From assembly GCF_055900595.2 (NCBI RefSeq), contig NZ_CM148325.1: 64,000 bases of DNA. One strand, given 5' to 3'. Of the stretch, positions 14,440 to 63,620 are shown in pieces. A program made the position numbers and the translations under genes. Numbering within the stretch: the stretch's first letter is position 1; every line of letters starts with the position of its first letter. Below the pieces are notes generated by a model that was not told the origin of the DNA, did not search any database, and saw nothing but the letters and a program-made list of their open reading frames with translations.

Positions 14440-14440
14440 G

Positions 14441-19872: not shown

Positions 19873-20123
19873 AAGGATTCGCAGCTCTGTTCCTTGGGGC
19901 TGCTTTTATGATAAAGGTTAATTAGTGAAAGATATTTTATTTTCTTCTGGCGTTGGTTTTGGCATTGGTGCTTTGTTTACAATCGTGCGATTACCTATTC
20001 CTGTTCCAAATGTATTGCCGGGTATATTATCCATCGTGTTTATGTATGTCGGATATCTGGTGGTGAAATACTTTATGCCATGATAATTTAATATGATGTA
20101 TTTTTTATATGGAGCACTTAATT

Positions 20124-33430: not shown

Positions 33431-33451
33431 TATTCGACAGGGATAATTGTT

Positions 33452-34699: not shown

Positions 34700-34713
34700 G
34701 AAGGAAAATCCAG

Positions 34714-36836: not shown

Positions 36837-36860
36837 TCTCCTGATTAACCCGGAGCGGTT

Positions 36861-39356: not shown

Positions 39357-39358
39357 CG

Positions 39359-44289: not shown

Positions 44290-44309
44290 ACACCATCGCC
44301 AGAAATGCA

Positions 44310-44336
44310 AACAGGAGCCAGATGGCTCCTGTTTTT
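44310..44336 (+). terminator. Rho-independent terminator of alaC
   Basis: 10-bp stem aacaggagcc/ggctcctgtt, loop agat, followed by TTT. Confidence 0.5.
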
Positions 44337-44353
44337 CATTGCACAGTTTGCTT

Positions 44354-44425
44354 TTAGATCATCAGGGCAAAAGTACCGGCCCAAACGATGACCATAAAAG
44401 AAATGCCCATAAAGAAATATTTCAC
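44354..44425 (-). CDS. ypdK: Small membrane protein YpdK (23 aa, GTG start)
   Basis: Minus strand reads GTG-AAA-TAT... translating to MKYFFMGISFMVIVWAGTFALMI with GGAGAG about 8 nt upstream; too short for the ORF track. Confidence 0.55.
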   Translation of the reverse strand: MKYFFMGISFMVIVWAGTFALMI

Positions 44426-44712
44426 TTTACATCTCTCCGCGTAATTACTGTTACGCCTGAATGACTTCATTACACCTGATACAGTGAGTTGACACCGGGC
44501 AAAACGACATTGAAAGTCCGTATTTTACCGTGGGCATCACCCCAGAATTCTGAGCTAAACTGCTCCAGACGGCGCTAATGTACGCCTAAAACTGAAACGA
44601 GACAAGAGGCATTTTCTTATTTACTTTTAGTAACTTACAGGTGTCTCATATCGGCGACAGTTTAATTTCTGACGGTAATAATTAGAGATTCAGCGAAGGA
44701 AAAAACCTTAAG

Positions 44713-44747
44713 AAAAAAGCCATAAAAACCATGAGGTTATTATGGCT
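44713..44747 (-). terminator. Candidate rho-independent terminator of lpxP
   Basis: On minus strand: stem agccata/tatggct followed by TTTTTT, about 35 nt 3' of lpxP stop. Confidence 0.45.
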
Positions 44748-44779
44748 GATTTGAGGAGGGAAAGAGTAAGAGCAATTTG

Positions 44780-45700
44780 TTAAATGTATAACGACGATTC
44801 TCCCACCGGGCGCGTTTTAAAGCGACGGTGGATCCAGAGGTACTGCTCAGGTGCGCGCATAATCTCTTTCTCGATAATCTTGTTCATATAGGCAGCGGCT
44901 TGATTTTCATCTGCCGGGTAGCCTTCCATTTCAGGGGTGATGAACAACCGATATCCGCTGTAATCCGCTTTTCTGACCATCGTTACGGTCAACATGGCTG
45001 CGCCAGAGAGACGAGAGAGGACATAGGTGCCATTGGTTGTGGCAACATTTTCTACCGCAAAGAACGGTGCGAAGGAGCTGCCTTTACGACCATAATCCTG
45101 ATCGGGAGCAAACCATACGGCTTCACCTTTCTTCAGCGCACCGACAATACCGCGCAGATTATTTCTGCCGATCATCGCTTTGTTAGAGCGCATGCGACCA
45201 CGGGTCTGCACCCATTCCATCAGCTGATTATTATGCGGACGATAGGTGGCCATCATTGGCTGACATAGTCCCATCACGCGGCCGCCCAATTCCAGCGACA
45301 TAAAATGGACGCCGACAACCATCACGCCACGATTTTGCAGTTGTGCGCGTTTGAGGTTATCCAGCCCTTCAACATCAAACCATTTACGTACGCGACTGTC
45401 GGGCCAGAACCATGCCATGCCGGTTTCTACCAGCGCCATGCCGAGTGAACGAAAGTTTTCGGCAATCATCTTCTCGCGCTCTTCAGCAGAATGCTGTGGG
45501 AAACAAAGTTCCAGGTTCTTACGGGCGATAGATTCACGACGTTTCAGGAATGGTCGCGCCATCGTGCCGATACGCGTGCCGAGAAAACAGAGAACAGGGT
45601 AAGGAAGCTGTACCCAAAGCCAGAGTACACCAAGCCCAAACCATGTGAGCCAGTAGCGAGGATGTAGAAACTCGCGGGAAAATTTGCATTTTGGAAACAT
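44780..45700 (-). CDS. lpxP: Lipid A palmitoleoyl-ACP acyltransferase LpxP (cold-induced LpxL paralog; start trimmed to MFPKCKF)
   Basis: 306 aa from trimmed start; LpxL/HtrB-family lauroyl/palmitoleoyl acyltransferase sequence. Confidence 0.9.
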   Translation of the reverse strand: MFPKCKFSREFLHPRYWLTWFGLGVLWLWVQLPYPVLCFLGTRIGTMARPFLKRRESIARKNLELCFPQHSAEEREKMIAENFRSLGMALVETGMAWFWPDSRVRKWFDVEGLDNLKRAQLQNRGVMVVGVHFMSLELGGRVMGLCQPMMATYRPHNNQLMEWVQTRGRMRSNKAMIGRNNLRGIVGALKKGEAVWFAPDQDYGRKGSSFAPFFAVENVATTNGTYVLSRLSGAAMLTVTMVRKADYSGYRLFITPEMEGYPADENQAAAYMNKIIEKEIMRAPEQYLWIHRRFKTRPVGESSLYI

Positions 45701-46053
45701 AGTTACCTTCTGTAGATACGAATTGTTGTATCGCAGAAGATTCCATGTCGACAGCGGTACACTCAATTGGTTGGGCCATCATGTACGACAATGGTTCCTG
45801 TAAAGAGTGTAAAGACTAGTCAGGACATAACCACGAGGAGCATGAATGCGGTGCTTTTACTTTATCACTGGCTGACTGCTTTCAGCTACTGATTATTTAT
45901 CGTGCAAAGTAAATATTTTTTTCGCACATTACAGTCTTGCATTTAACGTGCTGTTTTCATTAATACTTAGCAAAAATTGCCAGAGGTTAAGGATTGTCTT
46001 ACTATTAAAGTGACTGAAGTTACAGGTTTTTTAGCGCGGCAGGAGGTTGAGCT

Positions 46054-46296
46054 ATGATTTATTTATGGATGTTTCTCGCCCTGTGTATTGTCTGCGTAAG
46101 CGGATACATCGGTCAGGTACTGAACGTGGTCTCGGCGGTCTCTTCTTTCTTCGGCATGGTGATCCTCGCTGCACTCATTTACTACTTCACCATGTGGTTA
46201 ACTGGCGGTAATGAACTAGTGACGGGGATATTTATGTTTCTTGCCCCGGCTTGTGGCTTGATGATTCGCTTTATGGTGGGGTATGGCAGGCGGTAG
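46054..46296 (+). CDS. yfdY: Small inner-membrane protein YfdY (DUF2545)
   Basis: 80 aa, two predicted TM helices; conserved position. Confidence 0.75.
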   Translation: MIYLWMFLALCIVCVSGYIGQVLNVVSAVSSFFGMVILAALIYYFTMWLTGGNELVTGIFMFLAPACGLMIRFMVGYGRR

Positions 46297-46372
46297 TAGT
46301 TCAGGATGGATCATTTGGGCAGGTGCTCACATCATCAACAGATATGATTGTTCACCTGCCATGTGACAGACG

Positions 46373-46648
46373 CTATCGCACAGGATGAATAAGATAATTC
46401 GCCTTTGTCGGAAAAGGGGGCGTGATGTCTTCTGTGAGATTTAATGGTGGCGCATCTTCTCTCATCTTAAACAAAATCGCCTGTGATGGTTGAAGTTTTG
46501 TAGAATGAGTTGTCGTCATCACTGACGTTTTTTCTGTCCCTTTATAGCTCGTCTCACTTCCACCACCAGAAATGGAAAATGCAAAAACATTGCATGCCAT
46601 AATAGAGACCAATAAAAATAAGCTAAAAAGCATTAAGTTTACTTTCAT
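46373..46648 (-). CDS. ypdI: Small secreted/lipoprotein-like protein YpdI
   Basis: 91 aa with signal peptide and Cys near the cleavage region (SIMAC); conserved position. Confidence 0.75.
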   Translation of the reverse strand: MKVNLMLFSLFLLVSIMACNVFAFSISGGGSETSYKGTEKTSVMTTTHSTKLQPSQAILFKMREDAPPLNLTEDITPPFPTKANYLIHPVR

Positions 46649-46790
46649 AGAAAGTTATCCTGAGAATGGCTCACTGAGAACCTACGATGTTATGGCTGTA
46701 TTTACATTTAATTAATCAGTATTTACATCGATATAATAAATGACATCTCTTTGTGGTATATAAGAATAGTTCTCTGCGACAGGAAGCATA

Positions 46791-46845
46791 TTCCTACAAT
46801 TGTAAGACTAAATACTTCTTGCGATAATAACTACAACTGTAAGAT
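46791..46845. promoter_or_regulatory. Two EvgA-box-like 18-bp inverted repeats upstream of yfdX
   Basis: TTCCTACA-AT-TGTAAGAC (46791-46808) and TAACTACA-AC-TGTAAGAT (46828-46845) versus consensus TTCYTACA-N2-TGTARGAA. Confidence 0.45.
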
Positions 46846-46942
46846 AACCCTTTCAAAATGACCGTTGCTCTCTGATTTCTCATTTCATGCTCACCCAATA
46901 TGATGGCGGCGTTTTCTAAAACTGTTAAAGAATGAGGTAAGT

Positions 46943-47575
46943 ATGAAACGTTTAATTATGGCTACGATGGTCACAGCAGTTCTGGCATCTTCAACTGTAT
47001 GGGCTGCTGATAATGCACCGGTAGCAGCACAACAGCAAACTCAGCAAGTTCAGCAAACCCAGAAAACGGTAGCAGCAGAGCGTATCTCTGAACAGGGTTT
47101 ATATGCGATGCGTGACGTGCAGGTAGCGCGCCTGGCTCTGTTTCATGGCGATCCGGAAAAGGCAAAAGAACTGACCAATGAAGCTTCCGCTTTGCTGTCA
47201 GATGACAGTACTGAATGGGCAAAGTTCGCTAAGCCAGGTAAAAAGACCAATGTCAATGATGACCAATATATTTTCATTAATGCATCTGTCGGAATTTCTG
47301 AGAGTTATGTAGCGACACCCGAAAAAGAAGCCGCGATAAAAATTGCCAACGAAAAAATGGCGAAAGGGGATAAAAAGGGCGCAATGGAAGAGCTTCGCCT
47401 GGCCGGTGTTGGTGTAATGGAAAACCAATATCTGATGCCGCTTAAACAGACTCGTAATGCACTTGCTGATGCGCAGAAACTGCTTGATAAAAAGCAATAC
47501 TACGAGGCAAACCTGGCGCTTAAAGGTGCGGAAGATGGAATCATCGTCGATAGCGAAGCACTGTTTGTGAACTAA
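46943..47575 (+). CDS. yfdX: Periplasmic protein YfdX (EvgA-regulated, function unclear)
   Basis: 210 aa with signal peptide; first gene of yfdX-frc-oxc-yfdV-yfdE cluster. Confidence 0.9.
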
Positions 47576-47819
47576 TGCTGACAGGCAGCATATTGAAGTA
47601 AAAGATTTTACTCCCTCCTGGCGACAATTTTTTATGACCACAATACGACCGATTGTGGTCATAAAATTATTTGGCGCTCGCGGTTCTATTAACACGAATT
47701 TTCTATTCCTCAAAGTAAACATCAATAATCCCGTGTCATCACGAAATCATTGTTTATGTTATGTTTTATGGTACGATTTAAAAATCGTAATCATTTCCCT
47801 AACTGTAAATCACAATCGC

Positions 47820-47837
47820 TTCTTACAGTTGTAAGAA
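47820..47837. promoter_or_regulatory. Perfect EvgA-box palindrome about 250 bp upstream of frc
   Basis: TTCTTACA-GT-TGTAAGAA, a perfect 8-2-8 inverted repeat matching the EvgA consensus. Confidence 0.55.
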
Positions 47838-48088
47838 TAACATCACAAATGTCGCGGCTCTCTCTGATTACCGCAAACCAATATTTATCATATTCTTCTT
47901 TTCGTCCTCACTACTTACCATGCAAAAAGGAATTGGAAGTGGCGATGAAATGATTTTCCGCACTTGATACAGGAATTTAAAAATATCGAGTGCAGCTACG
48001 ACGATATTTTGCGGATTATTTATAGAGGGCGTTATGCCTTAAATAAACGCTAAATTAACATATATTTAATTAACTAATAGGTATTGCT

Positions 48089-49339
48089 ATGTCAACTCCA
48101 CTTCAAGGAATTAAAGTTCTCGATTTCACCGGTGTGCAATCTGGCCCATCTTGTACTCAGATGCTGGCGTGGTTTGGCGCTGACGTCATTAAAATTGAAC
48201 GTCCCGGCGTTGGTGACGTAACGCGTCGCCAGCTGCGAGATATTCCTGATATCGATGCGCTTTACTTCACCATGCTTAACAGCAACAAACGTTCTATTGA
48301 ATTAAATACCAAAACAGCGGAAGGCAAAGAGGTAATGGAAAAGCTGATCCGCGAAGCTGATATCTTGGTCGAGAACTTTCATCCAGGGGCTATTGATCAC
48401 ATGGGCTTCACCTGGGAGCATATTCAGGAAATCAACCCACGTCTGATTTTTGGTTCGATCAAAGGGTTTGATGAGTGTTCACCTTATGTGAATGTAAAAG
48501 CCTATGAAAACGTTGCTCAGGCAGCGGGTGGCGCGGCATCCACTACGGGTTTTTGGGACGGCCCGCCGCTGGTAAGCGCTGCAGCGTTGGGTGACAGCAA
48601 CACCGGAATGCATTTGCTGATCGGTTTACTTGCTGCTTTGCTGCATCGCGAAAAAACGGGGCGTGGGCAACGAGTTACCATGTCAATGCAGGATGCCGTG
48701 TTGAACCTTTGCCGCGTGAAATTACGTGACCAGCAGCGCCTCGATAAGCTGGGTTATCTGGAAGAATACCCGCAGTATCCGAATGGCACATTTGGCGACG
48801 CAGTACCACGCGGTGGTAATGCGGGTGGTGGCGGTCAGCCTGGCTGGATCCTGAAATGTAAAGGCTGGGAAACCGATCCTAACGCCTATATTTATTTCAC
48901 TATTCAGGAGCAAAACTGGGAAAACACCTGTAAAGCTATCGGCAAACCAGAATGGATTACCGATCCGGCATACAGTACAGCTCATGCCCGACAGCCACAT
49001 ATTTTCGATATTTTTGCTGAAATCGAAAAATACACTGTCACTATTGATAAACATGAAGCGGTGGCCTATTTGACTCAGTTTGATATTCCTTGTGCACCGG
49101 TTTTAAGTATGAAAGAAATTTCACTCGATCCCTCTTTGCGCCAAAGTGGCAGTGTTGTCGAAGTAGAGCAACCGTTGCGTGGAAAATATCTGACAGTTGG
49201 TTGTCCAATGAAATTCTCTGCCTTTACGCCGGATATTAAAGCTGCGCCGCTATTAGGTGAACATACCGCTGCTGTATTGCAGGAGCTGGGTTATAGCGAC
49301 GATGAAATTGCTGCAATGAAGCAAAACCACGCCATCTGA
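48089..49339 (+). CDS. frc: Formyl-CoA:oxalate CoA-transferase (family III CoA-transferase)
   Basis: 416 aa, CaiB/BaiF family; paired with oxc. Confidence 0.95.
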
Positions 49340-49392
49340 TATTAACGGGGGCTTCTGGCTCCCAATTTATAAAAATTTCGAGGTTATTAATC

Positions 49393-51087
49393 ATGTCAGA
49401 TCAACTTCAAATGACAGATGGTATGCATATCATCGTTGAAGCATTAAAACAGAATAATATTGACACTATTTATGGTGTTGTAGGTATTCCTGTGACGGAT
49501 ATGGCGCGCCATGCCCAGGCGGAAGGCATTCGTTATATTGGTTTTCGTCATGAGCAATCTGCAGGCTATGCGGCTGCGGCAAGCGGTTTTCTTACCCAAA
49601 AGCCAGGGATCTGCCTGACCGTTTCTGCGCCAGGATTCCTCAATGGTTTGACTGCATTGGCCAACGCAACAGTAAATGGTTTTCCGATGATCATGATCAG
49701 CGGCTCCAGCGATCGCGCGATCGTTGATCTCCAGCAAGGTGATTATGAAGAGCTGGACCAAATGAATGCGGCAAAACCCTATGCCAAAGCGGCATTCCGC
49801 GTTAACCAGCCGCAGGATCTTGGCATTGCGTTGGCACGCGCTATCCGGGTCTCCGTTTCGGGTCGCCCTGGTGGTGTTTATCTTGATTTGCCAGCAAATG
49901 TCCTGGCTGCGACGATGGAAAAAGACGAAGCATTAGCCACTATTGTTAAAGTTGAAAACCCATCGCCAGCGTTATTGCCATGCCCGAAGTCAGTCACTAG
50001 TGCAATTTCGCTGTTAGCAAAAGCAGAACGGCCATTAATTATCCTTGGTAAAGGCGCGGCGTATTCACAAGCTGATGAGCAGCTTCGTGAGTTTATTGAA
50101 AGTACCCAGATTCCATTCCTGCCAATGTCTATGGCGAAAGGGATCCTGGAAGATACGCATCCACTTTCTGCGGCGGCTGCGCGTTCGTTTGCGCTGGCAA
50201 ATGCTGATGTTGTCATGCTTGTTGGGGCGCGACTGAATTGGTTACTGGCGCACGGTAAAAAAGGATGGGCGGCAGATACACAGTTTATTCAACTGGATAT
50301 AGAACCGCAGGAAATTGACAGCAATCGACCCATTACTGTGCCAGTCGTTGGCGATATTGCATCCAGTATGCAAGGTATGCTGGCAGAACTGAAACAAAAC
50401 ACATTTACGACTCCACTGGTGTGGCGCGATATTTTAAATATCCACAAGCAGCAAAATGCGCAAAAAATGCATGAAAAGTTAAGTACAGATACCCAACCAT
50501 TAAATTACTTTAATGCATTGAGTGCGGTGCGCGATGTATTGCGCGAGAACCAGGATATTTATTTAGTTAATGAAGGGGCAAATACCCTAGATAATGCACG
50601 AAATATTATTGATATGTATAAACCACGTCGTCGTCTGGATTGTGGCACCTGGGGGGTTATGGGCATCGGTATGGGTTATGCTATCGGCGCGAGTGTAACC
50701 TCTGGTTCCCCAGTTGTTGCCATTGAAGGTGATAGTGCTTTTGGTTTCAGTGGGATGGAGATTGAAACGATTTGTCGATATAACCTGCCGGTGACAATCG
50801 TTATTTTTAATAATGGCGGCATCTACAGAGGAGACGGTGTTGATCTCAGTGGCGCTGGTGCACCATCACCAACAGATCTATTGCACCATGCAAGGTATGA
50901 CAAATTAATGGATGCATTTCGTGGCGTTGGATATAACGTCACCACGACAGATGAACTTCGTGATGCTTTAACCACCGGTATTCAGTCGCGCAAACCGACC
51001 ATTATTAATGTGGTCATCGACCCAGCAGCAGGAACTGAAAGTGGCCATATTACCAAACTTAACCCAAAACAAGTCTCTGGTAATTAA
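49393..51087 (+). CDS. oxc: Oxalyl-CoA decarboxylase (ThDP-dependent)
   Basis: 564 aa, thiamine-diphosphate enzyme with [14 protein letters not shown] ThDP-binding motif. Confidence 0.95.
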
Positions 51088-51155
51088 ATACTGACATCGT
51101 CTCCTCTTGCCAACTCATTATCGATGGTGAGGGGACCCTTATCGGAAATACTATT

Positions 51156-52100
51156 ATGCTAACATTTTTTATTGGCGATTTATTGCCTATTATCGTAATC
51201 ATGCTGTTGGGTTATTTTAGCGGCAGACGAGAAACTTTTTCAGAAGATCAAGCCCGGGCATTTAATAAACTGGTATTAAATTACGCTCTTCCTGCGGCCC
51301 TATTTGTTTCTATTACCCGGGCAAACAGGGAAATGATTTTTGCGGACACTCGCCTGACCCTTGTATCACTTGTGGTTATTGTCGGATGTTTCTTTTTCTC
51401 CTGGTTTGGTTGCTACAAATTTTTTAAACGTACCCATGCAGAAGCAGCAGTATGTGCATTAATTGCAGGTTCACCTACCATTGGATTCCTGGGGTTTGCA
51501 GTTCTCGACCCTATTTATGGTGATTCCGTATCAACAGGTTTAGTGGTAGCAATTATTTCTATTATTGTTAACGCAATTACTATTCCTATTGGTCTGTATT
51601 TGCTGAATCCCTCCTCAGGAGCGGATGGTAAGAAGAATAGCAATCTGAGCGCGTTAATCTCTGCGGCAAAGGAGCCAGTCGTATGGGCACCTGTTCTGGC
51701 AACGATCCTGGTGTTGGTTGGGGTAAAAATTCCGGCAGCATGGGATCCAACCTTTAATCTGATTGCGAAGGCCAACTCAGGGGTAGCGGTATTCGCTGCG
51801 GGTTTGACTCTGGCTGCACATAAATTCGAGTTCAGTGCTGAAATTGCTTATAACACCTTCCTGAAGCTGATTCTGATGCCACTGGCACTGCTTCTCGTTG
51901 GTATGGCATGTCATTTGAACAGCGAACATCTGCAGATGATGGTACTGGCAGGCGCATTACCGCCGGCATTCTCCGGAATCATTATTGCCAGCCGGTTTAA
52001 TGTCTACACCCGCACTGGTACAGCGTCATTGGCTGTTAGCGTGCTGGGTTTTGTCGTCACGGCTCCCTTGTGGATTTATGTCAGTCGACTGGTTTCATAA
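51156..52100 (+). CDS. yfdV: AEC-family membrane transporter YfdV
   Basis: 314-aa polytopic membrane protein. Confidence 0.9.
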
Positions 52101-52173
52101 TTAATCATGTTATTAATTTTCATAAATGCCGAAGAGTCTTTTCACCTTCGGCTTTTTTTCAAGGCATAAGCAA

Positions 52174-53319
52174 ATGACAAATACTGAAAGCAAAGGCCCA
52201 TTTGAAGGGTTATTAGTTATTGATATGACTCATGTCCTTAATGGGCCTTTCGGAACTCAACTCCTTTGTAATATGGGCGCAAGGGTCATTAAAGTTGAGC
52301 CGCCGGGTCATGGTGATGATACCCGCACATTTGGTCCCTATGTGGATGGGCAGTCACTCTATTACAGTTTTATTAATCATGGCAAAGAGAGCGTGGTTCT
52401 TGATTTAAAGAATGACCACGATAAAAGTATATTTATAAATATGCTTAAACAAGCTGATGTATTAGCCGAGAATTTCCGCCCAGGTACAATGGAAAAAATG
52501 GGGTTTTCGTGGGAAACGCTACAAGAAATCAACCCACGTCTCATCTATGCTTCATCGTCAGGTTTCGGACATACCGGTCCGCTAAAAGATGCTCCGGCCT
52601 ACGATACCATTATTCAGGCAATGAGTGGAATAATGATGGAAACGGGATATCCTGATGCTCCGCCAGTGCGTGTTGGCACCTCTCTTGCAGATCTCTGTGG
52701 CGGTGTCTATTTATTCAGTGGAATCGTGAGTGCGCTTTATGGCCGCGAAAAGAGCCAGCGAGGGGCGCATGTCGATATCGCGATGTTTGATGCCACTCTG
52801 AGTTTTCTGGAGCATGGACTGATGGCATATATCGCGACTGGGAAGTCACCACAACGTCTGGGAAATCGCCATCCCTACATGGCTCCTTTTGATGTTTTCG
52901 ATACTCAGGATAAACCAATTACTATTTGTTGTGGTAATGACAAGCTTTTTTCTGCGTTATGCCAGGCACTGGATCTGACGGAACTTGTTGATGATCCCCG
53001 ATTTAACAGCAATATTTTACGTGTACAAAATCAAGCTATTCTTAAACAATATATTGAGCGGACGTTAAAAACGCAGGCAGCTGAAGTTTGGTTAGCCAGA
53101 ATACATGAAGTTGGTGTACCCGTAGCGCCGTTATTAAGTGTGGCTGAGGCCATTAATTTGCCACAAACTCAGGCGAGAAATATGTTGATTGAAGCCGGGG
53201 GAATAATGATGCCGGGTAATCCGATAAAAATCAGCGGCTGCGCGGACCCGCATGTTATGCCGGGAGCGGCAACGCTCGACCAGCATGGGGAACAAATTCG
53301 CCAGGAATTCTCATCGTAA
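52174..53319 (+). CDS. yfdE: Acetyl-CoA:oxalate CoA-transferase YfdE (start trimmed to MTNTESK)
   Basis: 381 aa from trimmed start; family III CoA-transferase, paralogous to frc. Confidence 0.9.
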   Translation: MTNTESKGPFEGLLVIDMTHVLNGPFGTQLLCNMGARVIKVEPPGHGDDTRTFGPYVDGQSLYYSFINHGKESVVLDLKNDHDKSIFINMLKQADVLAENFRPGTMEKMGFSWETLQEINPRLIYASSSGFGHTGPLKDAPAYDTIIQAMSGIMMETGYPDAPPVRVGTSLADLCGGVYLFSGIVSALYGREKSQRGAHVDIAMFDATLSFLEHGLMAYIATGKSPQRLGNRHPYMAPFDVFDTQDKPITICCGNDKLFSALCQALDLTELVDDPRFNSNILRVQNQAILKQYIERTLKTQAAEVWLARIHEVGVPVAPLLSVAEAINLPQTQARNMLIEAGGIMMPGNPIKISGCADPHVMPGAATLDQHGEQIRQEFSS

Positions 53320-53341
53320 ATGTTAGATGTGCTGGTAAATA

Positions 53342-53368
53342 GCTCCCACATTTGAACATTGTGGGAGC
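53342..53368. other. 9-bp-stem hairpin between convergent yfdE and evgS (possible terminator)
   Basis: gctcccaca ... tgtgggagc inverted repeat; no clear T-run. Confidence 0.3.
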
Positions 53369-53374
53369 CGCTAT

Positions 53375-56300
53375 TTAGTCATTTTGTTGACAGAAAACCG
53401 CAATCTCCTGGTCTAACTCTGCAATGTGTTCTTTAACAGAGTTCAGCAACTTAAGAATTTCAGGCTTGCTGTCATCTGAAACTGGCGTTATTTCTAACTG
53501 GTGGCTAAGATTAATCAACTTTTGCAAATTCAGGATGTTAGCCGCACCGTGGATGCGATGAATACACTGATGGAAAGTTCTGTTATCGCCAGCTTCTAAC
53601 GCATGAAACGCAGCGGGTAGATCTTTATGCGTTTCATGCTGGAAAGTCATGAGAATCTCCTGCATCAGTTGTAGATCGTTCGCCGTATTATTTTTCAGGG
53701 CCTCGATATCAAGGTGGCGATACTGAGGTGCAATATGTGCAACCTGGTGTAACTGACTTAAATGTGTTTTCAGTACATCCAGGGTTAACGGTTTGAACAA
53801 ACATAAGTTCATGCCGCAATTTAACCCTTTTTCACGTTCGTTAGCCTGTGCGTTGGCTGTAAGCCCCCAGATGGGTAAGGAAGAATTTTGCTCACGGAGT
53901 TTGCGAGTCAACTCAAAACCATCCATATTCGGCATATTAACGTCAGTAATAAGCAGATCATAATGCTGCATACTGACTTTGTGTAGCGCCTGTACACCAT
54001 CAGAGGCTTCATCAACATCATATCCTAATAGGTTTAGCTGGCGTTTGAGTAATAGCCTGTTGGTCGGATGATCATCCGCGATTAATATGCTCAACTTTTC
54101 AGGGAGTGTCATAGGTTGTTCTGCTTTTGCCTCGACAGTCGCCACTTGTTGGGTAATTTCTACCGGGATTGTGATCGTAAATGTCGTTCCTATGCCGGGA
54201 TGACTTTCTAATGACAAATCGCCCTGCATGTTTTTAATTAATTCTTTGCAGATCATTAAGCCTAAACCAGAACCTGTTTGCTGACGACCTGCTGTTGTTT
54301 GGCTATAGCGTTTAAACAGTTGTTGTTGTTCTTCCTGCGATAATCCGCTTCCGGTGTCCATAATCGTCATTTTGATAACAGCGTGGTTGTCATCAATATG
54401 AACCAGGGAAGTCGTAATTTTTACTGCCCCCTCGGTGGTAAATTTAAGGGCATTACTCAGTAAATTAGACAGCACCTGCTTAAATGCTTGAGGGTCGATT
54501 TTAACCAGGTAGCGTTCAGGAAGCGTACTGCTGCAATTTAATGCGATGGATTTGCTTGCAGCAATCGCACCGAAAGAATGACAAGTGTTCTGGACTAAAG
54601 TAGGGATATCGACCCATTGTGGTTGAAGTTGATAGTTACCCGACTCAATTTTGTCGACATCAAGGATTTCACCAATTAAGCCGAGGAGCGACTGTCCGGT
54701 GGCGTAAGCAAGTGAAATCGCCTCCACACGTTGCTCCTTGCTAAGACCTGAACCCGACAGAAGTTCCAGGAAGCCCATAATGGAGCTTATTGGTGTTCTT
54801 ATTTCGTGACTCATTGTTGCCAGGAACTGGCTTTTTGCGACAGTTGCATTGATCGCTTTATTTCTTTCTACTTCGAGTGCATGAATTAAATCACGCGTCT
54901 CGGTAATATCTTGCCAACCACAAATATATACTGCATTGTCACTTGCAGGTAAATTGCATAATGTATGCCAATGATTAATGCATCTTTTTTCAGTACCATT
55001 ATTAATTTCAAAAACTTGGCTATATATTGTTCTGTTTTCTTTTGTTTCTGCTGTGACTTCATGCACATTAGAAAAAACATCTTTAAAGGGGGAGTCACTG
55101 TTTTCTAATGGTAACATTGCATTTTTGTAGTAATCAGCAGTGAAATAATGTTCAAATGCACTATTGTGACTAATGACATTACCTTGCCAGTTTACAACAT
55201 AAGTTGGATTCGGTAAGGAATCCGAGAGTGCTTTCCGGAATGATATTTGGTTTTCTAAATCACCCTGAATTACCTTACGACGACGAACTGAGCGTAACAG
55301 GTAGAATCCCCATAAAAGGCTACTGCCAACTAATAAAACGGATAAAGTCGTAACAATGTAAAATTGCTCACTATAGAGGTCCCATGTGTCAATGGTCACA
55401 TTGGGCATTTTGATCCATTTTTCCGTCAGGCGCAGAACTTCGCTTGGGGGAATTGCATTCAATGCTTTATTAATAATATCCTTAAGTTCTGGTTCTCCGC
55501 GAGGAAAAGCGAACGAAAGCGATGCATTCTCAACGCCGGGAATAAGAAAATGATAAAGCTCATTAGGATAGTAATGGTCGATCATGTAACGCGAATTTAG
55601 CTGTGTCGCGACCAGGGCATCAAGTTCACCTTCCTTAACCTTGTGAAATGCAGCGCTAGCATTATCGACTTGTATCCACTCAACCTCCGGATACATCTCT
55701 TTCAATTGCGAATGAAGCTCATAATAATATGGAATGGCAACTTTCATTCCTTTTTTTAAAGTTTGTTCACTATCAGGCGCTTTTTGCATGACGAAAACGT
55801 AAGGCGTTGTTATGAATGCTTCAGCAAATAAAACATTATTTTCTCGATCTTCATTATAAATAGCGCCAGGTAAGATATCCCATCCATCGGGATTAAGCTG
55901 TGTTCCGGCATGGATATTGTGTGAAACGGTGATCGGAGAAAATCTTAAACCTGTTTGCAATGTAATAATATTAAGAATATCCCCCATAACGCCCCGAACC
56001 GAGCCATTTTCATCAGTCATAGAATAGGGAGGGGAGTAAGGATTTTCCAGCACCTTTAAATCGGGATGTTGCTTAATCCACTGTTTTTCATGTTCAGTGA
56101 GTTCTAATGGTTTGTTCAGAAAGGCCAGGTTTCCTGTATCAAGCCAATTTTGTGATACTTCATAGCGAACTTCATTTGTTAAAGCATCAACAAACCGATT
56201 GAGTACTTCATTAAGAATGACGGATTCTTTTCTGGTCAAGAAAAAATTATATTGACGCGGCGAGTTATAATATTTCACTACATTTAAGGAGTGAGTGAAA

Positions 56301-56968
56301 TAGCGGGAAATCATACTGCTGGTAATGATGTTACTACCAATAAAGTAATCATTATGTCCGGTAGAAACGGATGCTAATGCCTGATATAAATTTGTAAAAG
56401 AGATAATTGTTGCTTTTGGAAATGATTGATGAATTACCTTGTCTGGGGGGTAATTTGCTACCCGAGCAATATTTACTGGTTTTGGTGAGGTAAGCGGTCG
56501 CATTGAGTCGTGAAGGGTGGTTACCAGCGCCGGAAAGGTAATTATCAATGGTTTGGTTGCAGCAATGTCATTATTAAGAGGCGGCGAAGTAACTAAATGT
56601 GATAACACTATATCGACTTCACCTTCTGCAAGCGCGTCCATTGCTTTTTGATGATCTGCGTATTCCCGGAGTGTTAATTTGATATTTAACGCTCTTTTTA
56701 AAAGATTTAAATAATCAGCATTAATACCACGAACCCGTTGCTGCGAATCGGTATGCAACAACGTAGCCGTTTGGGACTTGTGTACTGCAATCACAAGATT
56801 TTTTTTGCTCGCTAACCAACGTAATTCCTTGTTGCTCAGACGTAGTGGATCAAGCGTGACACGGTTGTTACTACTGATGCCACGATATTCGATGTAATCT
56901 TCGTCTGCGAAACTTATGGTCGACCAAAGACCACAACAGAGAAGAAAAAAATAGGGTAAAAACTTCAT
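53375..56968 (-). CDS. evgS: Hybrid sensor histidine kinase EvgS (periplasmic tandem binding domains, HisKA/HATPase, receiver, HPt)
   Basis: 1197 aa; His box SHEIRTP, receiver domain and C-terminal HPt. Confidence 0.95.
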   Translation of the reverse strand: MKFLPYFFLLCCGLWSTISFADEDYIEYRGISSNNRVTLDPLRLSNKELRWLASKKNLVIAVHKSQTATLLHTDSQQRVRGINADYLNLLKRALNIKLTLREYADHQKAMDALAEGEVDIVLSHLVTSPPLNNDIAATKPLIITFPALVTTLHDSMRPLTSPKPVNIARVANYPPDKVIHQSFPKATIISFTNLYQALASVSTGHNDYFIGSNIITSSMISRYFTHSLNVVKYYNSPRQYNFFLTRKESVILNEVLNRFVDALTNEVRYEVSQNWLDTGNLAFLNKPLELTEHEKQWIKQHPDLKVLENPYSPPYSMTDENGSVRGVMGDILNIITLQTGLRFSPITVSHNIHAGTQLNPDGWDILPGAIYNEDRENNVLFAEAFITTPYVFVMQKAPDSEQTLKKGMKVAIPYYYELHSQLKEMYPEVEWIQVDNASAAFHKVKEGELDALVATQLNSRYMIDHYYPNELYHFLIPGVENASLSFAFPRGEPELKDIINKALNAIPPSEVLRLTEKWIKMPNVTIDTWDLYSEQFYIVTTLSVLLVGSSLLWGFYLLRSVRRRKVIQGDLENQISFRKALSDSLPNPTYVVNWQGNVISHNSAFEHYFTADYYKNAMLPLENSDSPFKDVFSNVHEVTAETKENRTIYSQVFEINNGTEKRCINHWHTLCNLPASDNAVYICGWQDITETRDLIHALEVERNKAINATVAKSQFLATMSHEIRTPISSIMGFLELLSGSGLSKEQRVEAISLAYATGQSLLGLIGEILDVDKIESGNYQLQPQWVDIPTLVQNTCHSFGAIAASKSIALNCSSTLPERYLVKIDPQAFKQVLSNLLSNALKFTTEGAVKITTSLVHIDDNHAVIKMTIMDTGSGLSQEEQQQLFKRYSQTTAGRQQTGSGLGLMICKELIKNMQGDLSLESHPGIGTTFTITIPVEITQQVATVEAKAEQPMTLPEKLSILIADDHPTNRLLLKRQLNLLGYDVDEASDGVQALHKVSMQHYDLLITDVNMPNMDGFELTRKLREQNSSLPIWGLTANAQANEREKGLNCGMNLCLFKPLTLDVLKTHLSQLHQVAHIAPQYRHLDIEALKNNTANDLQLMQEILMTFQHETHKDLPAAFHALEAGDNRTFHQCIHRIHGAANILNLQKLINLSHQLEITPVSDDSKPEILKLLNSVKEHIAELDQEIAVFCQQND

Positions 56969-56972
56969 GTGA

Positions 56973-57587
56973 TTAGCCGATTTTGTTACGTTGCGCGAAT
57001 GTGTAAAGATCCATCAGTGATTTACATTCTAATTTTTCCATCAGGCGACTTTTATACGTGCTGACAGTTTTGTTGCTGATGAACATTTTTTCCGCAATGT
57101 CATTATTGTCCTTGCCATCAAGAATATACCTCATGACACTAATTTCTTGTTTCGATAAGGAGTCGAGTTTTTGCTGGTCGGACGTTAAACTTCCAACAAA
57201 CCGGTTGAGAGAGAAAGGGAAATAGCAGTAGCCATTTTTTGCAGCTTCAATAGCCGCAATGATATTGTTCATGCCTTCTTTTTTACTCACGAATCCATTA
57301 GCGCCTGCATCAGCACAATGTTTCCCGTAAAAATGGTCATTTTTAGCGGAGACGATAATAATAATTCCGCTATATTGGCGCTTCCTCAGCGTTTCTAACA
57401 CCTGGATACCGTTAACTCCGGGGATATCGACATCAATGATGACGATATCAGGTTTAAGTGTTTCCACCCGCTGAACGGCACTTCCCCCTTCAGTCAACTC
57501 CGCTAAGATTTCAATATCGTTTTTGATCAATAAATTACGAATTGCTGCGATAGCAAGAGGATGGTCATCAATAATTATTGCGTTCAT
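56973..57587 (-). CDS. evgA: Response regulator EvgA (NarL/FixJ family)
   Basis: 204 aa; receiver domain plus LuxR-type HTH. Confidence 0.95.
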   Translation of the reverse strand: MNAIIIDDHPLAIAAIRNLLIKNDIEILAELTEGGSAVQRVETLKPDIVIIDVDIPGVNGIQVLETLRKRQYSGIIIIVSAKNDHFYGKHCADAGANGFVSKKEGMNNIIAAIEAAKNGYCYFPFSLNRFVGSLTSDQQKLDSLSKQEISVMRYILDGKDNNDIAEKMFISNKTVSTYKSRLMEKLECKSLMDLYTFAQRNKIG

Positions 57588-57801
57588 AGATTATTCCCTT
57601 TGCAATGAAGCATCTCCCTTCTCCCTGTAGTAATACAGACATAAGGCATCATCTCATTTTCTCAATCAAAATAAGAAAATTTGAGCTTCCTTTAAGATAA
57701 TTCAACAAGTATACCATATAAATAGTCGGCATAAATGAAATGTCAACAATAAAATCAGGGATAATACCGCTAACTTATAGTTTCAAATGAGTACTATAAG
57801 G

Positions 57802-57819
57802 CTTCTTATTAATCCTACA
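57802..57819. promoter_or_regulatory. EvgA-box-like inverted repeat in evgA-emrK divergent region
   Basis: ATCCTACA-GG-CGTAAGAA versus TTCYTACA-N2-TGTARGAA, one mismatch per half. Confidence 0.5.
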
Positions 57820-58002
57820 GGCGTAAGAATTGTATTGCAAAAGTCACGGTTTAGTCCTCTGTTGTATCTTCTGCAACTCCTTTAAATTAGGCCTCCAACG
57901 TTCCTGGGATAATGTGTAACACATGCACTGTGTTTGATATGAAGAATGAATACTCTTTTCATTCAATTCATAAATTTCATCTATGCGAAATGAGAGATAA
58001 TA

Positions 58003-59166
58003 GTGGAACAGATTAATTCAAATAAAAAACATTCTGACAGAAGAAAATATTTTGCTTTATTAGCAGTGGTTTTATTTATTGCGTTTTCAGGAGCCTATGC
58101 CTATTGGTCACTGGAATTAGAAGACATGATTAGTACAGATGACGCCTATGTTACGGGGAATGCTGATCCAATTTCTGCACAAGTCTCAGGCAGTGTCACT
58201 GTCGTTAATCATAAAGATACGAACTTTGTTCGACAGGGTGACATTTTAGTTTCACTGGATAAAACTGATGCTACGATTGCACTCAATAAAGCTAAAAATA
58301 ATCTGGCAAATATTGTGCGACAAACGAATAAACTATACTTACAGGATAAACAATACAGTGCCGAAGTCGCTTCAGCACGTATCCAGTATCAACAATCTTT
58401 AGAAGATTATAATCGTCGTGTGCCGCTAGCAAAGCAGGGGGTTATTTCAAAAGAAACGCTGGAGCACACCAAAGATACGTTAATAAGTAGCAAAGCGGCA
58501 TTGAATGCAGCTATTCAGGCTTATAAAGCGAACAAAGCCTTAGTAATGAACACACCATTAAATCGCCAGCCACAAGTTGTTGAAGCTGCGGATGCAACCA
58601 AAGAAGCCTGGTTGGCGCTTAAACGTACGGATATTAAGAGTCCGGTTACCGGTTATATTGCCCAGAGAAGTGTTCAGGTCGGCGAAACAGTGAGTCCTGG
58701 ACAATCGTTAATGGCTGTCGTACCGGCACGTCAAATGTGGGTTAATGCCAACTTTAAAGAAACACAACTCACGGATGTACGGATTGGTCAATCGGTTAAT
58801 ATAATCAGCGATCTTTATGGTGAAAATGTTGTGTTTCATGGTCAGGTGACAGGGATCAATATGGGAACCGGCAATGCGTTCTCCTTATTACCTGCACAAA
58901 ATGCGACAGGGAACTGGATCAAAATCGTTCAGCGTGTACCGGTTGAGGTGTCTCTGGATCCAAAAGAACTCATGGAACATCCCTTGCGCATTGGTTTATC
59001 GATGACTGCAACCATTGATACCAGGAACGAAGACATTGCCGATATGCCTGATCTGGCTTCATCCGTGACGTCAATGCCTGCTTACACCAGTAAGGCCTTA
59101 GTTATCGATACCAGTCCGATAGAAAAAGAGATTAACAACATTATTTCTCATAATGGACAACTTTAA
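58003..59166 (+). CDS. emrK: Multidrug efflux periplasmic adaptor EmrK (EmrA paralog)
   Basis: 387 aa HlyD-family membrane fusion protein. Confidence 0.93.
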   Translation: MEQINSNKKHSDRRKYFALLAVVLFIAFSGAYAYWSLELEDMISTDDAYVTGNADPISAQVSGSVTVVNHKDTNFVRQGDILVSLDKTDATIALNKAKNNLANIVRQTNKLYLQDKQYSAEVASARIQYQQSLEDYNRRVPLAKQGVISKETLEHTKDTLISSKAALNAAIQAYKANKALVMNTPLNRQPQVVEAADATKEAWLALKRTDIKSPVTGYIAQRSVQVGETVSPGQSLMAVVPARQMWVNANFKETQLTDVRIGQSVNIISDLYGENVVFHGQVTGINMGTGNAFSLLPAQNATGNWIKIVQRVPVEVSLDPKELMEHPLRIGLSMTATIDTRNEDIADMPDLASSVTSMPAYTSKALVIDTSPIEKEINNIISHNGQL

Positions 59167-60704
59167 TGGCAATCACTAAATCAACTCCGGCACCATTAAC
59201 CGGTGGGACGTTATGGTGCGTCACTATTGCATTGTCATTAGCGACGTTTATGCAAATGTTGGACTCCACTATTTCTAACGTCGCAATACCCACAATATCT
59301 GGCTTTCTCGGAGCATCAACGGACGAAGGCACATGGGTTATCACATCGTTTGGCGTAGCAAATGCCATTGCGATCCCTGTTACCGGCAGGCTGGCACAAA
59401 GAATAGGCGAATTAAGGTTATTTTTACTATCAGTAACCTTCTTTTCGCTGTCTTCATTAATGTGTAGTCTTTCGACTAATCTTGATGTTCTTATATTTTT
59501 TAGAGTCGTCCAGGGATTAATGGCGGGGCCGTTAATTCCATTGTCACAGAGTTTATTATTAAGGAATTATCCGCCAGAAAAAAGAACATTTGCTTTGGCG
59601 TTATGGTCAATGACCGTAATTATCGCTCCGATTTGTGGGCCGATATTGGGTGGCTATATTTGTGATAACTTTAGTTGGGGATGGATATTTTTAATCAATG
59701 TCCCTATGGGGATTATCGTCCTGACATTATGTTTAACTTTACTTAAAGGAAGAGAAACTGAAACTTCACCGGTCAAAATGAATTTACCAGGGTTGACCCT
59801 GTTAGTGCTCGGTGTTGGTGGCTTGCAAATTATGCTTGATAAAGGGCGCGATCTGGATTGGTTTAACTCGAGTACAATCATAATATTAACAATAGTGTCA
59901 GTTATTTCTCTGATCTCTCTAGTCATTTGGGAGTCGACCTCAGAGAACCCGATTCTTGACCTCAGTTTATTCACGTCGCGTAATTTCACCATTGGTATTG
60001 TGTGTATCACATGCGCATATTTATTTTACTCTGGGGCGATTGTACTTATGCCGCAGTTGCTGCAGGAAACTATGGGGTATAATGCGATATGGGCCGGGCT
60101 TGCCTATGCGCCAATCGGCATAATGCCACTATTAATATCGCCTTTAATAGGACGTTATGGCAACAAAATTGATATGCGTGCATTGGTTACATTTAGTTTT
60201 TTGATGTATGCGGTTTGCTATTACTGGCGTTCTGTGACATTTATGCCAACGATTGATTTCACAGGCATCATTTTGCCACAGTTTTTCCAGGGATTCGCCG
60301 TTGCCTGTTTCTTTTTACCCTTAACAACGATTTCGTTTTCAGGGTTGCCAGATAATAAATTTGCCAATGCCTCGAGTATGAGTAATTTTTTTCGTACCCT
60401 GTCAGGATCAGTTGGTACGTCGTTGACAATGACGTTGTGGGGACGACGCGAATCGTTACACCATAGTCAGTTGACAGCAACCATCGATCAATTTAACCCC
60501 GTGTTTAATTCATCATCACAAATTATGGATAAATACTATGGTTCGCTTTCAGGGGTTCTTAATGAAATTAATAATGAAATAACTCAGCAGTCACTTTCAA
60601 TTTCTGCAAATGAGATTTTCCGTATGGCGGCTATTGCTTTTATCTTACTTACGGTATTGGTTTGGTTTGCGAAACCGCCGTTTACAGCGAAAGGTGTTGG
60701 GTGA
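59166..60704 (+). CDS. emrY: Multidrug efflux MFS transporter EmrY (EmrB paralog)
   Basis: 512 aa, 14-TM MFS; start overlaps emrK stop. Confidence 0.93.
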   Translation: MAITKSTPAPLTGGTLWCVTIALSLATFMQMLDSTISNVAIPTISGFLGASTDEGTWVITSFGVANAIAIPVTGRLAQRIGELRLFLLSVTFFSLSSLMCSLSTNLDVLIFFRVVQGLMAGPLIPLSQSLLLRNYPPEKRTFALALWSMTVIIAPICGPILGGYICDNFSWGWIFLINVPMGIIVLTLCLTLLKGRETETSPVKMNLPGLTLLVLGVGGLQIMLDKGRDLDWFNSSTIIILTIVSVISLISLVIWESTSENPILDLSLFTSRNFTIGIVCITCAYLFYSGAIVLMPQLLQETMGYNAIWAGLAYAPIGIMPLLISPLIGRYGNKIDMRALVTFSFLMYAVCYYWRSVTFMPTIDFTGIILPQFFQGFAVACFFLPLTTISFSGLPDNKFANASSMSNFFRTLSGSVGTSLTMTLWGRRESLHHSQLTATIDQFNPVFNSSSQIMDKYYGSLSGVLNEINNEITQQSLSISANEIFRMAAIAFILLTVLVWFAKPPFTAKGVG

Positions 60705-60781
60705 TGGTAAAAAGAGGAGGCTAGAGCAGGCAAGTCCGCGGAATTTTGAACCTGTACCATCATTTTATATGGATATTATCA

Positions 60782-60821
60782 GGCAGCATCGCTCACCCAG
60801 GGAAAGGATGGCGATGCTGCG
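60782..60821. other. Perfect 10-bp inverted repeat hairpin between convergent emrY and dsdA (possible terminator)
   Basis: gcagcatcgc ... gcgatgctgc; no T-run. Confidence 0.3.
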
Positions 60822-60832
60822 GTGAAACGTTA

Positions 60833-62161
60833 TTAACGGCCTTTAGCCAGATATTGCTTCATCTCTTCTTCCGGCACCATTCCACCTCCTGTCGCCCACA
60901 CCAGATGAGTGGCATTACGCAGTTGTTCTGTGCTGAAACCTTGCATCTGTTGGTAAATTACTGATGCGCACACGCGCTGAGGCCCGGCCATACCCGCCAG
61001 TGCTGAAGGCTCAAGACGAATGTCTTCTTCCTGCGCCAGCCAGCCAAGCATGTCATACATGGTTTGATCGCTAAGGGTATAGAAGCCATCCAGCAGACGC
61101 TCCATTGCCCGCCCGACAAAGCCTGATGCGCGACCAACAGCAAGGCCATCCGCTGCGGTAAGGTTGTCGATACCAATATCCTGAACAGAAATCTGATCGT
61201 GTAATCCAGTATGGACGCCTAACAGCATACAAGGGGAGTGCGTGGGTTCGGCAAAAAAGCAGTGAACATGATCGCCAAACGCCAGTTTAAGACCGAATGC
61301 GACGCCACCAGGACCACCGCCAACGCCACACGGCAGATAGACAAACAGAGGGTTACCAGCATCGACGATACGACCTTGCTTGGCAAATTGCGCTTTAAGA
61401 CGCTGGCCTGCGACGGAATACCCAAGGAACAACGTGCGGGAATTCTCGTCATCAATAAAGAAACAGTTCGGGTCAGACTGCGCTGCTTTACGTCCTTCCT
61501 CGACGGCAACCCCATAATCTTGCTCATATTCCACGACCGTAACGCCATGGCTGCGCAGTTTCTCTTTTTTCCATGCTCGGGCATCAGCAGACATATGCAC
61601 TGTCACCTTAAAGCCAATGCGGGCGCTCATAATGCCGATTGATAACCCCAGATTTCCGGTTGAGCCCACAGCAATGCTGTATTGGCTAAAGAACTGTTTA
61701 AACTCCGGAGAAAGCAGTTTGCTGTAGTCATCTTCAAGCGTCAGCAACCCTGCTTCCAGAGCCAGTTTTTCTGCATGTGCCAGGACTTCATAAATCCCGC
61801 CGCGTGCTTTTATGGAGCCGGAAATAGGCAAATGGCTATCTTTTTTCAGTAACAGTTGCCCGCTGATCGGTTGCTGATATTCCTTTTCCAGCCGTTTTTG
61901 CATAGCCGGAATGGCAACCAGTTCTGATTCAATAATCCCTCCAGAGGCAGCCGTTTCAGGAAATGCTTTTGCCAGATAGGGGGCAAAACGAGATAAGCGC
62001 GCATGGGCGTCCTGAACATCCTGTTCGGTCAGGCCAACATAAGGTAAACCTTCAGCCAATGAGGTCGTGCCAGGATTGAACCAGGTGGTTTCTTTAAGAG
62101 CAACCAGATCCTTTACCAACGGATACTGGGCGATGAGCGAGTTCATTTTAGCGTTTTCCAT
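60833..62161 (-). CDS. dsdA: D-serine ammonia-lyase (D-serine dehydratase)
   Basis: 442 aa [19 protein letters not shown]...; PLP-lysine context SGSIKARGG. Confidence 0.95.
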
Positions 62162-62361
62162 AGTATGTCTCTTTGCGCTTCGATGATAAATGACAGCAGG
62201 AATGTGCCCGCCAGAGCGACGACTGAAGCGATAAATGTCGCTGTCGTATAGTATTTATATGTTTCACTGAGCGTAGCGCCGCAAAATTGTTTCATCAGCC
62301 AGAAAAACGAGTCCGTAACGATCGTGCAGCCAATCGCAATAATTTCCGGGCTGATGTCTGG
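62143..62361 (-). pseudogene. dsdX: 3'-terminal remnant of D-serine transporter gene dsdX (about 72 codons, 5' truncated)
   Basis: Hand translation of minus strand gives [60 protein letters not shown]..., a GntP-family C-terminus; frame closed by in-frame TAA at 62362-62364; overlaps dsdA start. Confidence 0.5.
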
Positions 62362-62617
62362 TTACAGCCACAGCACAATGATCCATATTTATATTTTTTC
62401 TCCGGGTGGGTGATGCCAGTCGGCATGTTTTACCTACTTGTCTGCATGGTGACTCGTTGGCGAGAACAGAGGCGGAATTGGTTACAATTGTCCGGGAATT
62501 CTTGTTATTTTTTACTGTATTGTCGTGTCGGGTGATAGGACGTTAAGAATATCGCTGGATCTCGCCAGTGACGTCTGTTTCTGCTACAGTGCCCGTTTTA
62601 CGGCAAACGGCTTGGGT

Positions 62618-63613: not shown

Positions 63614-63620
63614 TATTATG

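Follow-up and report, generated by a model that had tools for sequence, protein, structure and literature searches.

A putative horizontally acquired nine-gene EvgAS cassette of stationary low G+C content in Escherichia coli

The 64-kb window analyzed here is a segment of an Escherichia coli chromosome that extends from cysUWA to dsdA-cscR, and the feature under study is an A+T-rich block within it that encodes the two-component system EvgS/EvgA and neighboring acid stress, oxalate and efflux functions. We propose, with a probability of ~85%, that the interval 46.3–60.8 kb is a horizontally acquired cassette of nine genes with the orphan gene ypdI beside it. The acquired unit comprises yfdX, frc-oxc-yfdV-yfdE, evgS-evgA and emrK-emrY, and excludes yfdY and ypdI. 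The locus itself is well known, and its parts in EvgAS acid resistance, in acid tolerance induced by oxalate and in efflux through the EmrKY pump are textbook knowledge for E. coli. A first-pass annotation, made from the sequence of the window, had described positions 46000–60704 (yfdY, ypdI, yfdX, frc, oxc, yfdV, yfdE, evgS, evgA, emrK and emrY) as one anciently acquired block. A few RefSeq genomes match this interval at 100% identity, and gene identities were transferred from the RefSeq annotation of a near-identical record (8 mismatches in 26,001 bases) with the coordinates checked. The decisive evidence for acquisition is comparative, namely different flanks in different hosts, a plasmid-borne copy and incongruent gene trees, and on this evidence the proposal that the block is both foreign to the chromosomal backbone and old is upheld.

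Homologues of EvgS formed a graded identity series (96, 81, 64, 58–54 and 45–43%) along which the gene neighborhood could be followed. The copy at 81% (locus L082) was assigned to Yersinia from flanking proteins that exactly match Yersinia/Y. frederiksenii entries. It contains emrY-emrK, evgA-evgS, yfdE-yfdV-oxc-frc and yfdX arranged exactly as in E. coli, and is bordered by DUF3302 and resistance-nodulation-division (RND) adaptor genes on one side and by arsCBR and tRNA-Gly on the other. In two Rahnella/Ewingella-like loci (L083 and L084; EvgS 58%) the order is smpB, the transfer-messenger RNA (tmRNA) gene ssrA, a P4-type primase gene, slp, the nine-gene cassette and hdeD-hdeA. Klebsiella variicola (EvgS 54%) provided one copy with slp and the full nine-gene cassette (L086) and a second (L085) that is located on the 378-kb plasmid CP103421 between insertion sequence (IS) elements and has lost emrKY. 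In a further locus, L087, evgAS, emrKY and yfdX are intact and yfdE, oxc and frc persist as short fragments (13761–15792). Reduced forms also were found: L090 is a bare evgAS pair adjoining the transfer genes of an integrative and conjugative element, and L088 is a K. pneumoniae KvhAS-like pair without the rest of the cassette.

Copies from Escherichia, Yersinia, the Rahnella-like loci and K. variicola had the nine genes in identical order, with EvgS identities as low as 54%. The yfdX gene marks the same cassette end in L082, L083, L085, L086 and L087, and emrY is the terminal gene at the other end in L082, L083 and L086. Moreover, when pairwise identities, as distinct from a formal phylogeny, were compared, each of the nine proteins placed Escherichia alongside Yersinia, and Klebsiella alongside the Rahnella-like copy. 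These groupings conflict with the split between Enterobacteriaceae and Yersiniaceae, a departure of gene trees from the species tree by which genomic islands are recognized. As both the gene order and the two clades are the same for all nine proteins, the genes therefore move as a unit, and the comparison of sequences would imply at least two transfers between families. Separately, slp and/or hdeD-hdeA flank the cassette in L083 (4901–5485 and 19361–20308), L086 (5422–5964) and L087 (17339–18271). In E. coli, slp and hdeD-hdeA are part of a different locus, the acid fitness island, over which the EvgA cascade also has control. The flanking arrangement in other hosts hints at an older and larger acid-stress island.

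The block might instead be a mosaic in which yfdX-frc-oxc-yfdVE, evgAS and emrKY were acquired at different times and came under common EvgA control later. This possibility is very remote. It can draw on the different G+C contents of the sub-blocks, which are 0.45–0.48 for frc-yfdE and 0.40–0.42 for evgSA-emrKY, and on the existence of partial versions, namely evgAS alone, the KvhAS-like pair and the plasmid copy that lacks emrKY. However, the same difference in G+C content between frc-yfdE and evgSA-emrKY is present in the Yersinia copy and therefore moves together with the genes. As for the partial versions, an IS-truncated emrK remnant and the frc/oxc fragments in L087 make them look like derived losses. 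The full gene order in four hosts and the single hierarchy of pairwise identities for all nine proteins also argue for a common history of the parts.

The position of the cassette in Escherichia is in a region of the chromosome that differs between genera. In Salmonella the order glk-alaC-ypdK-lpxP-yfdY is the same as in the window, but pgtP/C/B/A-pgtE come next, and the nucleotide homology with the window ends at position 46297, immediately past the yfdY stop codon. Thus, yfdY belongs to the conserved backbone. Inclusion of this gene in the A+T-rich block by the first-pass annotation is not sustained, either by its location at the same place in Salmonella or by its G+C content at third codon positions (GC3; Table 1). 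Atlantibacter has only two small genes between alaC and the tRNA-Arg(CCT) gene argW, which precedes yfdC, and in Buttiauxella yet other genes follow alaC-ypdK. The K-12-like order is emrY-dsdAXC-CPS-53 prophage-intS-argW-yfdC, in which argW is ~16 kb distant, beyond the dsd genes and the prophage. As the interval from alaC to argW is different in every genus examined, the block sits in a variable region. The cassette is absent next to alaC/lpxP/yfdY in Salmonella, Atlantibacter and Buttiauxella, and this lack at the syntenic site, together with the patchy distribution, is characteristic of an island. Two loci were discarded as comparisons. The Salmonella-labeled LpxP homologue P0203 is from an unrelated locus near suf and was replaced as the empty site by the AlaC context, and L092 (LpxP ‘88%’) proved to be an ordinary E. 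coli locus with a longer gene call.

The block also stands out by its base composition. The G+C content was 0.426 in 46000–60704 compared to 0.509 in the remainder of the window, each 1-kb bin from 46 to 61 kb had a value of 0.37–0.48 against ~0.50 elsewhere, and an unsupervised two-breakpoint fit to the whole window delimited a low-G+C segment at 45,680–60,780 (log-likelihood gain 164). The ten genes from ypdI to emrY possess G+C contents of 0.39–0.48 and GC3 values of 0.36–0.45. The mean GC3 of 0.401 for these genes is well below that of 0.562 for the 39 other window genes of at least 300 bp (Mann-Whitney p = 5e-6). The codon adaptation index (CAI; weights after the Sharp-Li E. coli table) was 0.259 for block genes and 0.345 for the others (p = 0.008), and the fraction of rare codons was 0.076 and 0.042, respectively (p = 0.003). 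The three long intergenic regions (ypdI-yfdX, yfdX-frc and evgA-emrK) have the lowest G+C contents in the window (Table 1), nupC-mntH (0.349) aside. The G+C and codon adaptation calculations bear out what the first-pass annotation had judged by eye, both for the block as a whole and for the intergenic regions and the evgS and emrKY coding sequences that it had singled out as especially A+T-rich. Overall, the block deviates in G+C content, GC3, CAI and rare codons, as genomic islands commonly do.

Composition can accommodate a second explanation, that the block is ancestral enterobacterial DNA which became A+T-enriched in place through poor expression, rare recombination and A+T-biased mutation to equilibrium, and that its patchiness reflects repeated loss. 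The block is core in E. coli: at least 80% of it is present in 5385 of 5426 complete genomes, so that its presence is not strain-variable and the block is an old, fixed island. The synonymous divergence (dS) from a K-12-like genome was 0.168 for the block and 0.170 for 14 flank genes (p = 0.93), and from L003, a collinear Escherichia lineage ~10% diverged, 0.40 and 0.43, respectively. The ratio of nonsynonymous to synonymous divergence (dN/dS) was ~0.05–0.10 across the block, with the exception of ypdI. The core presence and the dS values equal to those of the flanks indicate that the cassette predates the split of these lineages and has descended vertically under purifying selection.

Substitutions that distinguish the window from K-12 were polarized with L003 as outgroup. 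Within the block there were 228 AT→GC and 244 GC→AT changes at all sites and 173 of each type when third codon positions alone are counted. From these changes the equilibrium GC3 would be 0.386 (0.34–0.44), equal to the current value of 0.386, and drift towards the host GC3 of 0.56 was rejected (p = 1e-10). The composition of the block is stationary without amelioration. The per-site rates did not differ between block and flanks, being 0.066 and 0.062 for AT→GC and 0.105 and 0.081 for GC→AT changes, respectively, although the flank sample was small. In the backbone flanks at 43386–46296 and 60781–62283, GC→AT changes outnumbered AT→GC changes (49 to 37 and 18 to 12, respectively; a small sample). 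The equilibrium GC3 implied for the flanks was 0.43 (0.33–0.54), which is below their current value of 0.52. The stationary low G+C content may reflect either selection for A+T-richness or a local mutational equilibrium.

Enrichment in place thus would be compatible with the similar per-site rates of block and flanks, with the overlap between the equilibrium GC3 of the flanks and the current value for the block, and with the low CAI. The GC3 values of the more distant copies, which are 0.52–0.60, also are in its favor, as they indicate that low G+C content is not intrinsic to these genes. The Yersinia copy is A+T-rich as well (GC3 0.31–0.42), and values of 0.44–0.64 were obtained in the Rahnella-like/Klebsiella clade. 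In-place decay after acquisition could account for part of the composition. As an account of the origin of the block, however, enrichment in place is unlikely. The neighborhood of the cassette is different in all four chromosomal or contig contexts (Escherichia, Yersinia, the Rahnella-like loci and K. variicola L086), copies are found on a plasmid between IS elements and next to ssrA with a P4-type primase gene, the trees of the nine genes disagree with the family phylogeny, and the three genomes inspected at the syntenic site (Salmonella, Atlantibacter and Buttiauxella) have no cassette there. As the block is compositionally stationary, composition alone is weak evidence for acquisition, and horizontal acquisition of the nine genes is favored by these comparative data.

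The cassette includes its own regulator and the sites on which this regulator is expected to act. The EvgA box is an 18-bp inverted repeat, TTCYTACA-NN-TGTARGAA, that is located upstream of operons in the EvgA regulon, as observed here. When the whole 64 kb was searched with TTCYTACANNTGTARGAA allowing up to three mismatches, four matches were recovered: at 46791 (one mismatch) and 46828 (three mismatches) upstream of yfdX, at 47820 (exact) upstream of frc, and at 57812 between evgA and emrK. All four are inside the three promoter spacers and none is elsewhere in the window, and four or more matches were obtained in 0 of 100 shuffles. The first-pass annotation's assertion that EvgA boxes at three promoters unify the block thus is well founded. 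The boxes at the yfdX promoter have equivalents in L081, L003 and the Yersinia copy, and the last of these has boxes at all three promoters. In the Yersinia copy the frc box is conserved along with ~30 bp downstream of it, and the box is in a long spacer common only to the Escherichia and Yersinia copies. The core of the evgA-emrK box, ACAnnnGTAnGAAT, is invariant in six of six aligned copies in which the mean column identity is 60%.

Experimental support for these sites has been published. EvgA-dependent induction was described for yfdX, frc-oxc-yfdVE and emrKY (PMC3720670, PMC4283999, PMC9496106), and EvgA binding and EvgA/EvgS-dependent induction were reported for K-12 and Shigella (PMC3720670, PMC4283999, PMC8147483, PMC9496106). 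In constitutive evgS mutants, frc was induced most strongly, and oxc and emrKY also responded (PMC4283999). The emrKY promoter is bound by EvgA (PMC9496106), and the functions and EvgA control of frc-oxc-yfdV-yfdE have been reported (PMC3720670). With a resident regulator and this published induction, the view that the module is regulated as a unit is supported.

The block also has features of a target of the nucleoid protein H-NS. Windows of 100 bp with a G+C content below 0.33 make up 6.8% of the block and 1.2% of the DNA outside it, and tracts below 0.30 occur in all three promoter regions, which is the pattern of A+T-rich DNA with very A+T-rich promoter tracts that is associated with H-NS binding. 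A Lang-type H-NS motif was not clearly enriched (2 matches in the block compared to 10 outside at up to one mismatch). Genomic SELEX (systematic evolution of ligands by exponential enrichment) in K-12 assigned H-NS sites to two of these spacers, emrK-evgA and frc-yfdX, and to neither yfdY-lpxP nor yfdV-oxc (PMC3946193). The emrKY genes are described as derepressed in an hns deletion mutant in the citation of Nishino and Yamaguchi (2004) by PMC8678522. Among further articles, PMC1636352 names none of the genes of the block. The literature thus extends to two of the three spacers and to emrKY, and on its basis the probable H-NS silencing put forward by the first-pass annotation is reasonable for the promoters and hypothetical for the block as a whole.

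Overall, the observations are consistent with a scheme in which the cassette would have entered an Escherichia ancestor between yfdY and dsdA, within the variable region from alaC to the tRNA-Arg gene argW. It would have arrived as a self-contained unit, with the acid sensor/regulator pair EvgS/EvgA and, as targets, the promoters of yfdX and frc and the divergent one between evgA and emrK, all three of which bear the 18-bp repeat. According to the literature, mild acid would activate oxalate decarboxylation jointly with YfdX and the EmrKY pump. After its arrival, descent of the cassette was vertical and under purifying selection, and the low G+C content remained stationary rather than rising to the host value. 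At the A+T-rich promoters, EvgA most likely would work in part by counteracting H-NS.

Several points weigh against this interpretation. No integrase or transposase gene, tRNA gene or flanking repeat of at least 9 bp was found at the block edges within the window, nor was a tmRNA gene there, and the related Escherichia locus L003 likewise has no tRNA gene. Therefore, the mechanism of insertion in Escherichia is not visible. The empty syntenic site rests on three genomes, a single one from each of Salmonella, Atlantibacter and Buttiauxella, and the right boundary was set by the end of the cassette in other hosts and the G+C change-point in place of an empty site. A scan of species-representative genomes for EvgS, in which many hybrid kinases also fitted one pattern through their receiver domains, gave at least one true orthologue among the matches listed and is no basis for absence in relatives of Escherichia. 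The hosts of L083 and L084 were deduced from 90%-identity clusters of flanking proteins without species assignment. Finally, the genomic-SELEX table consulted (PMC3946193) lists no H-NS site for the ypdI-yfdX spacer.

The components of the block and its immediate surroundings are collected in Table 1. The frc, oxc, yfdV and yfdE products are formyl-CoA transferase, oxalyl-CoA decarboxylase, a transporter and acetyl-CoA:oxalate CoA-transferase, respectively. A hairpin just 3′ of yfdX, which is retained in the Yersinia copy even though the surrounding intergenic DNA has diverged, is probably the terminator of this gene. The emrY-dsdA gap showed neither a terminator nor a promoter consensus, and no Rfam family matched in 44000–62500.

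Table 1. Features of the A+T-rich block and adjacent DNA in window coordinates
Feature	Position	Strand	Remarks
yfdY (DUF2545)	46054..46296	+	GC3 0.63; outside the acquired block, conserved backbone
ypdI, small lipoprotein gene	46373..46648	-	GC 0.388, GC3 0.359; adjoins the cassette, not a member
ypdI-yfdX intergenic region (yfdX promoter)	46649..46942	.	GC 0.344; EvgA-box matches 46791-46808, 46828-46845
yfdX, periplasmic YfdX-family protein	46943..47575	+	First cassette gene; RefSeq annotation
Perfect hairpin, 11-bp arms, just 3′ of yfdX	47634..47662	+	Unique in window
yfdX-frc intergenic region (frc promoter)	47576..48088	.	GC 0.349; exact EvgA box 47820-47837
frc-oxc-yfdV-yfdE	48089..53319	+	Annotation; GC3 0.40-0.45; dN/dS 0.00-0.035
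evgS-evgA, unorthodox sensor kinase and NarL-family response regulator	53375..57587	-	Annotation; GC 0.40-0.41
evgA-emrK divergent promoter region	57588..58002	.	GC 0.333; EvgA box 57812-57829
emrK-emrY, adaptor and major facilitator superfamily (MFS) permease, TolC-dependent efflux pump	58003..60704	+	Last cassette genes; annotation; GC3 0.36-0.41, CAI 0.16-0.24

The ypdI gene, like yfdY, was absent from all cassette copies found outside Escherichia. It is an Escherichia-only orphan, a lineage-specific gene, and the membership in the module that the first-pass annotation implied for it has to be withdrawn. The gene evolves fast, with a dN/dS of 0.20 in comparison with a K-12-like genome and 0.60 with L003, and YpdI is 71% identical to its L003 counterpart compared to 90–99% for its neighbors.

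The window derives from a divergent lineage even though it is labeled E. coli. The block and the 14.7-kb left flank are ~95.5–96.0% identical to almost all complete E. coli genomes, and only 8–13 records (for example, Z0117EC0005 and stool isolates from Mali) are at least 99% identical to window positions 30000–60704. The closest annotated relative (L002, strain E200086; 3195–4540 and 25897–27009) has an IS3 element that splits pdxK and an IS421 element adjoining nupC, both of which are lacking in the window. At 62143–64000, cscR, cscA (sucrose, csc) and a truncated dsdX remnant are present where K-12-like genomes have dsdX-dsdC. Salmonella, Atlantibacter and Buttiauxella lack the fryB-fryC-ypdF-ypdE-fryA(ptsP)-ypdC genes (33104–40216; G+C content 0.51–0.57) between glk and ypdAB/alaC, and ypdAB also is absent from Salmonella. 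The fryB-to-ypdC interval appears to be a second lineage-specific insertion in the window, in this case a G+C-rich one. Three A+T-rich islets lie outside the block: yfeS at 4105–4839 (G+C content 0.381, GC3 0.347), the yfeR-xapA gap at 16671–17721 (G+C content 0.419), where a related strain has a yfeN/tsx-like pseudogene, and a 52-amino-acid DUF1427 open reading frame at 19925–20083 (G+C content 0.377).

Among described systems the block most closely resembles the evgAS-emrKY/yfdXWUVE locus of E. coli K-12, the EvgA regulon, with which it shares genes, order, promoters and EvgA boxes at ~95.7% nucleotide identity to K-12-like genomes. No functional difference was apparent; the window lineage is ~4% diverged from mainstream E. 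coli, and csc genes replace dsdX/dsdC at the right. The KvgAS and KvhAS clusters of Klebsiella likewise link an EvgAS-type two-component system to yfdX and acid-chaperone (hde) genes and are regarded as horizontally acquired (PMC6394985). The K. variicola copies found here also carry the whole frc-oxc-yfdVE set. The Klebsiella loci differ from the window in EvgS identity (54%; 43% for KvhAS-like), in a GC3 of ~0.60 compared to 0.40, in the attachment of slp and in the location of one copy on a plasmid between IS elements. The block also is reminiscent of H-NS-silenced islands with a resident activator, such as Salmonella pathogenicity island 2 (SPI-2) with SsrB, the E. coli acid fitness island with GadE/GadX and the enterocyte effacement locus (LEE) with Ler. 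It is similarly A+T-rich and acquired with its own activator, has H-NS sites at its promoters according to the literature, and is induced by a host-relevant signal, acid. Unlike these islands the block belongs to the E. coli core instead of varying between strains, its edges show no visible mobility genes, and anti-silencing by EvgA is conjecture. BvgAS of Bordetella has the same sensor architecture as EvgS, with two periplasmic SBP_bac_3 domains followed by PAS, HisKA, receiver and Hpt domains, and a NarL-type regulator (Pfam lists; PMC8174306), but is a distant homologue with another regulon and no linked oxalate or efflux genes.

The mobility and the stable composition of the cassette are modest additions to what is known of this locus. 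The acquired unit is defined as nine genes, without yfdY and ypdI. There is direct evidence that this unit has moved between families of Enterobacterales, on a plasmid among other settings, which contrasts with the statement that EvgS/EvgA is absent outside E. coli and Shigella with the exception of Bordetella and Klebsiella homologues (PMC8174306). In the literature that was searched no paper on mobility of the cassette was found, which is not proof that none exists. We suggest very tentatively that the low G+C content of the Escherichia and Yersinia cassettes is a maintained state rather than a fading trace of the donor, in which a portable regulon (sensor, regulator, cis boxes and targets) is kept H-NS-silenced by A+T-rich promoters and gene bodies until EvgA fires, although this is doubtful. 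If true, maintained A+T-richness would explain the absence of amelioration across the divergence of Escherichia when the sister clade has a GC3 of 0.52–0.60. The cassette is an old island that has not ameliorated, and as such cautions against the dating of transfers by composition.

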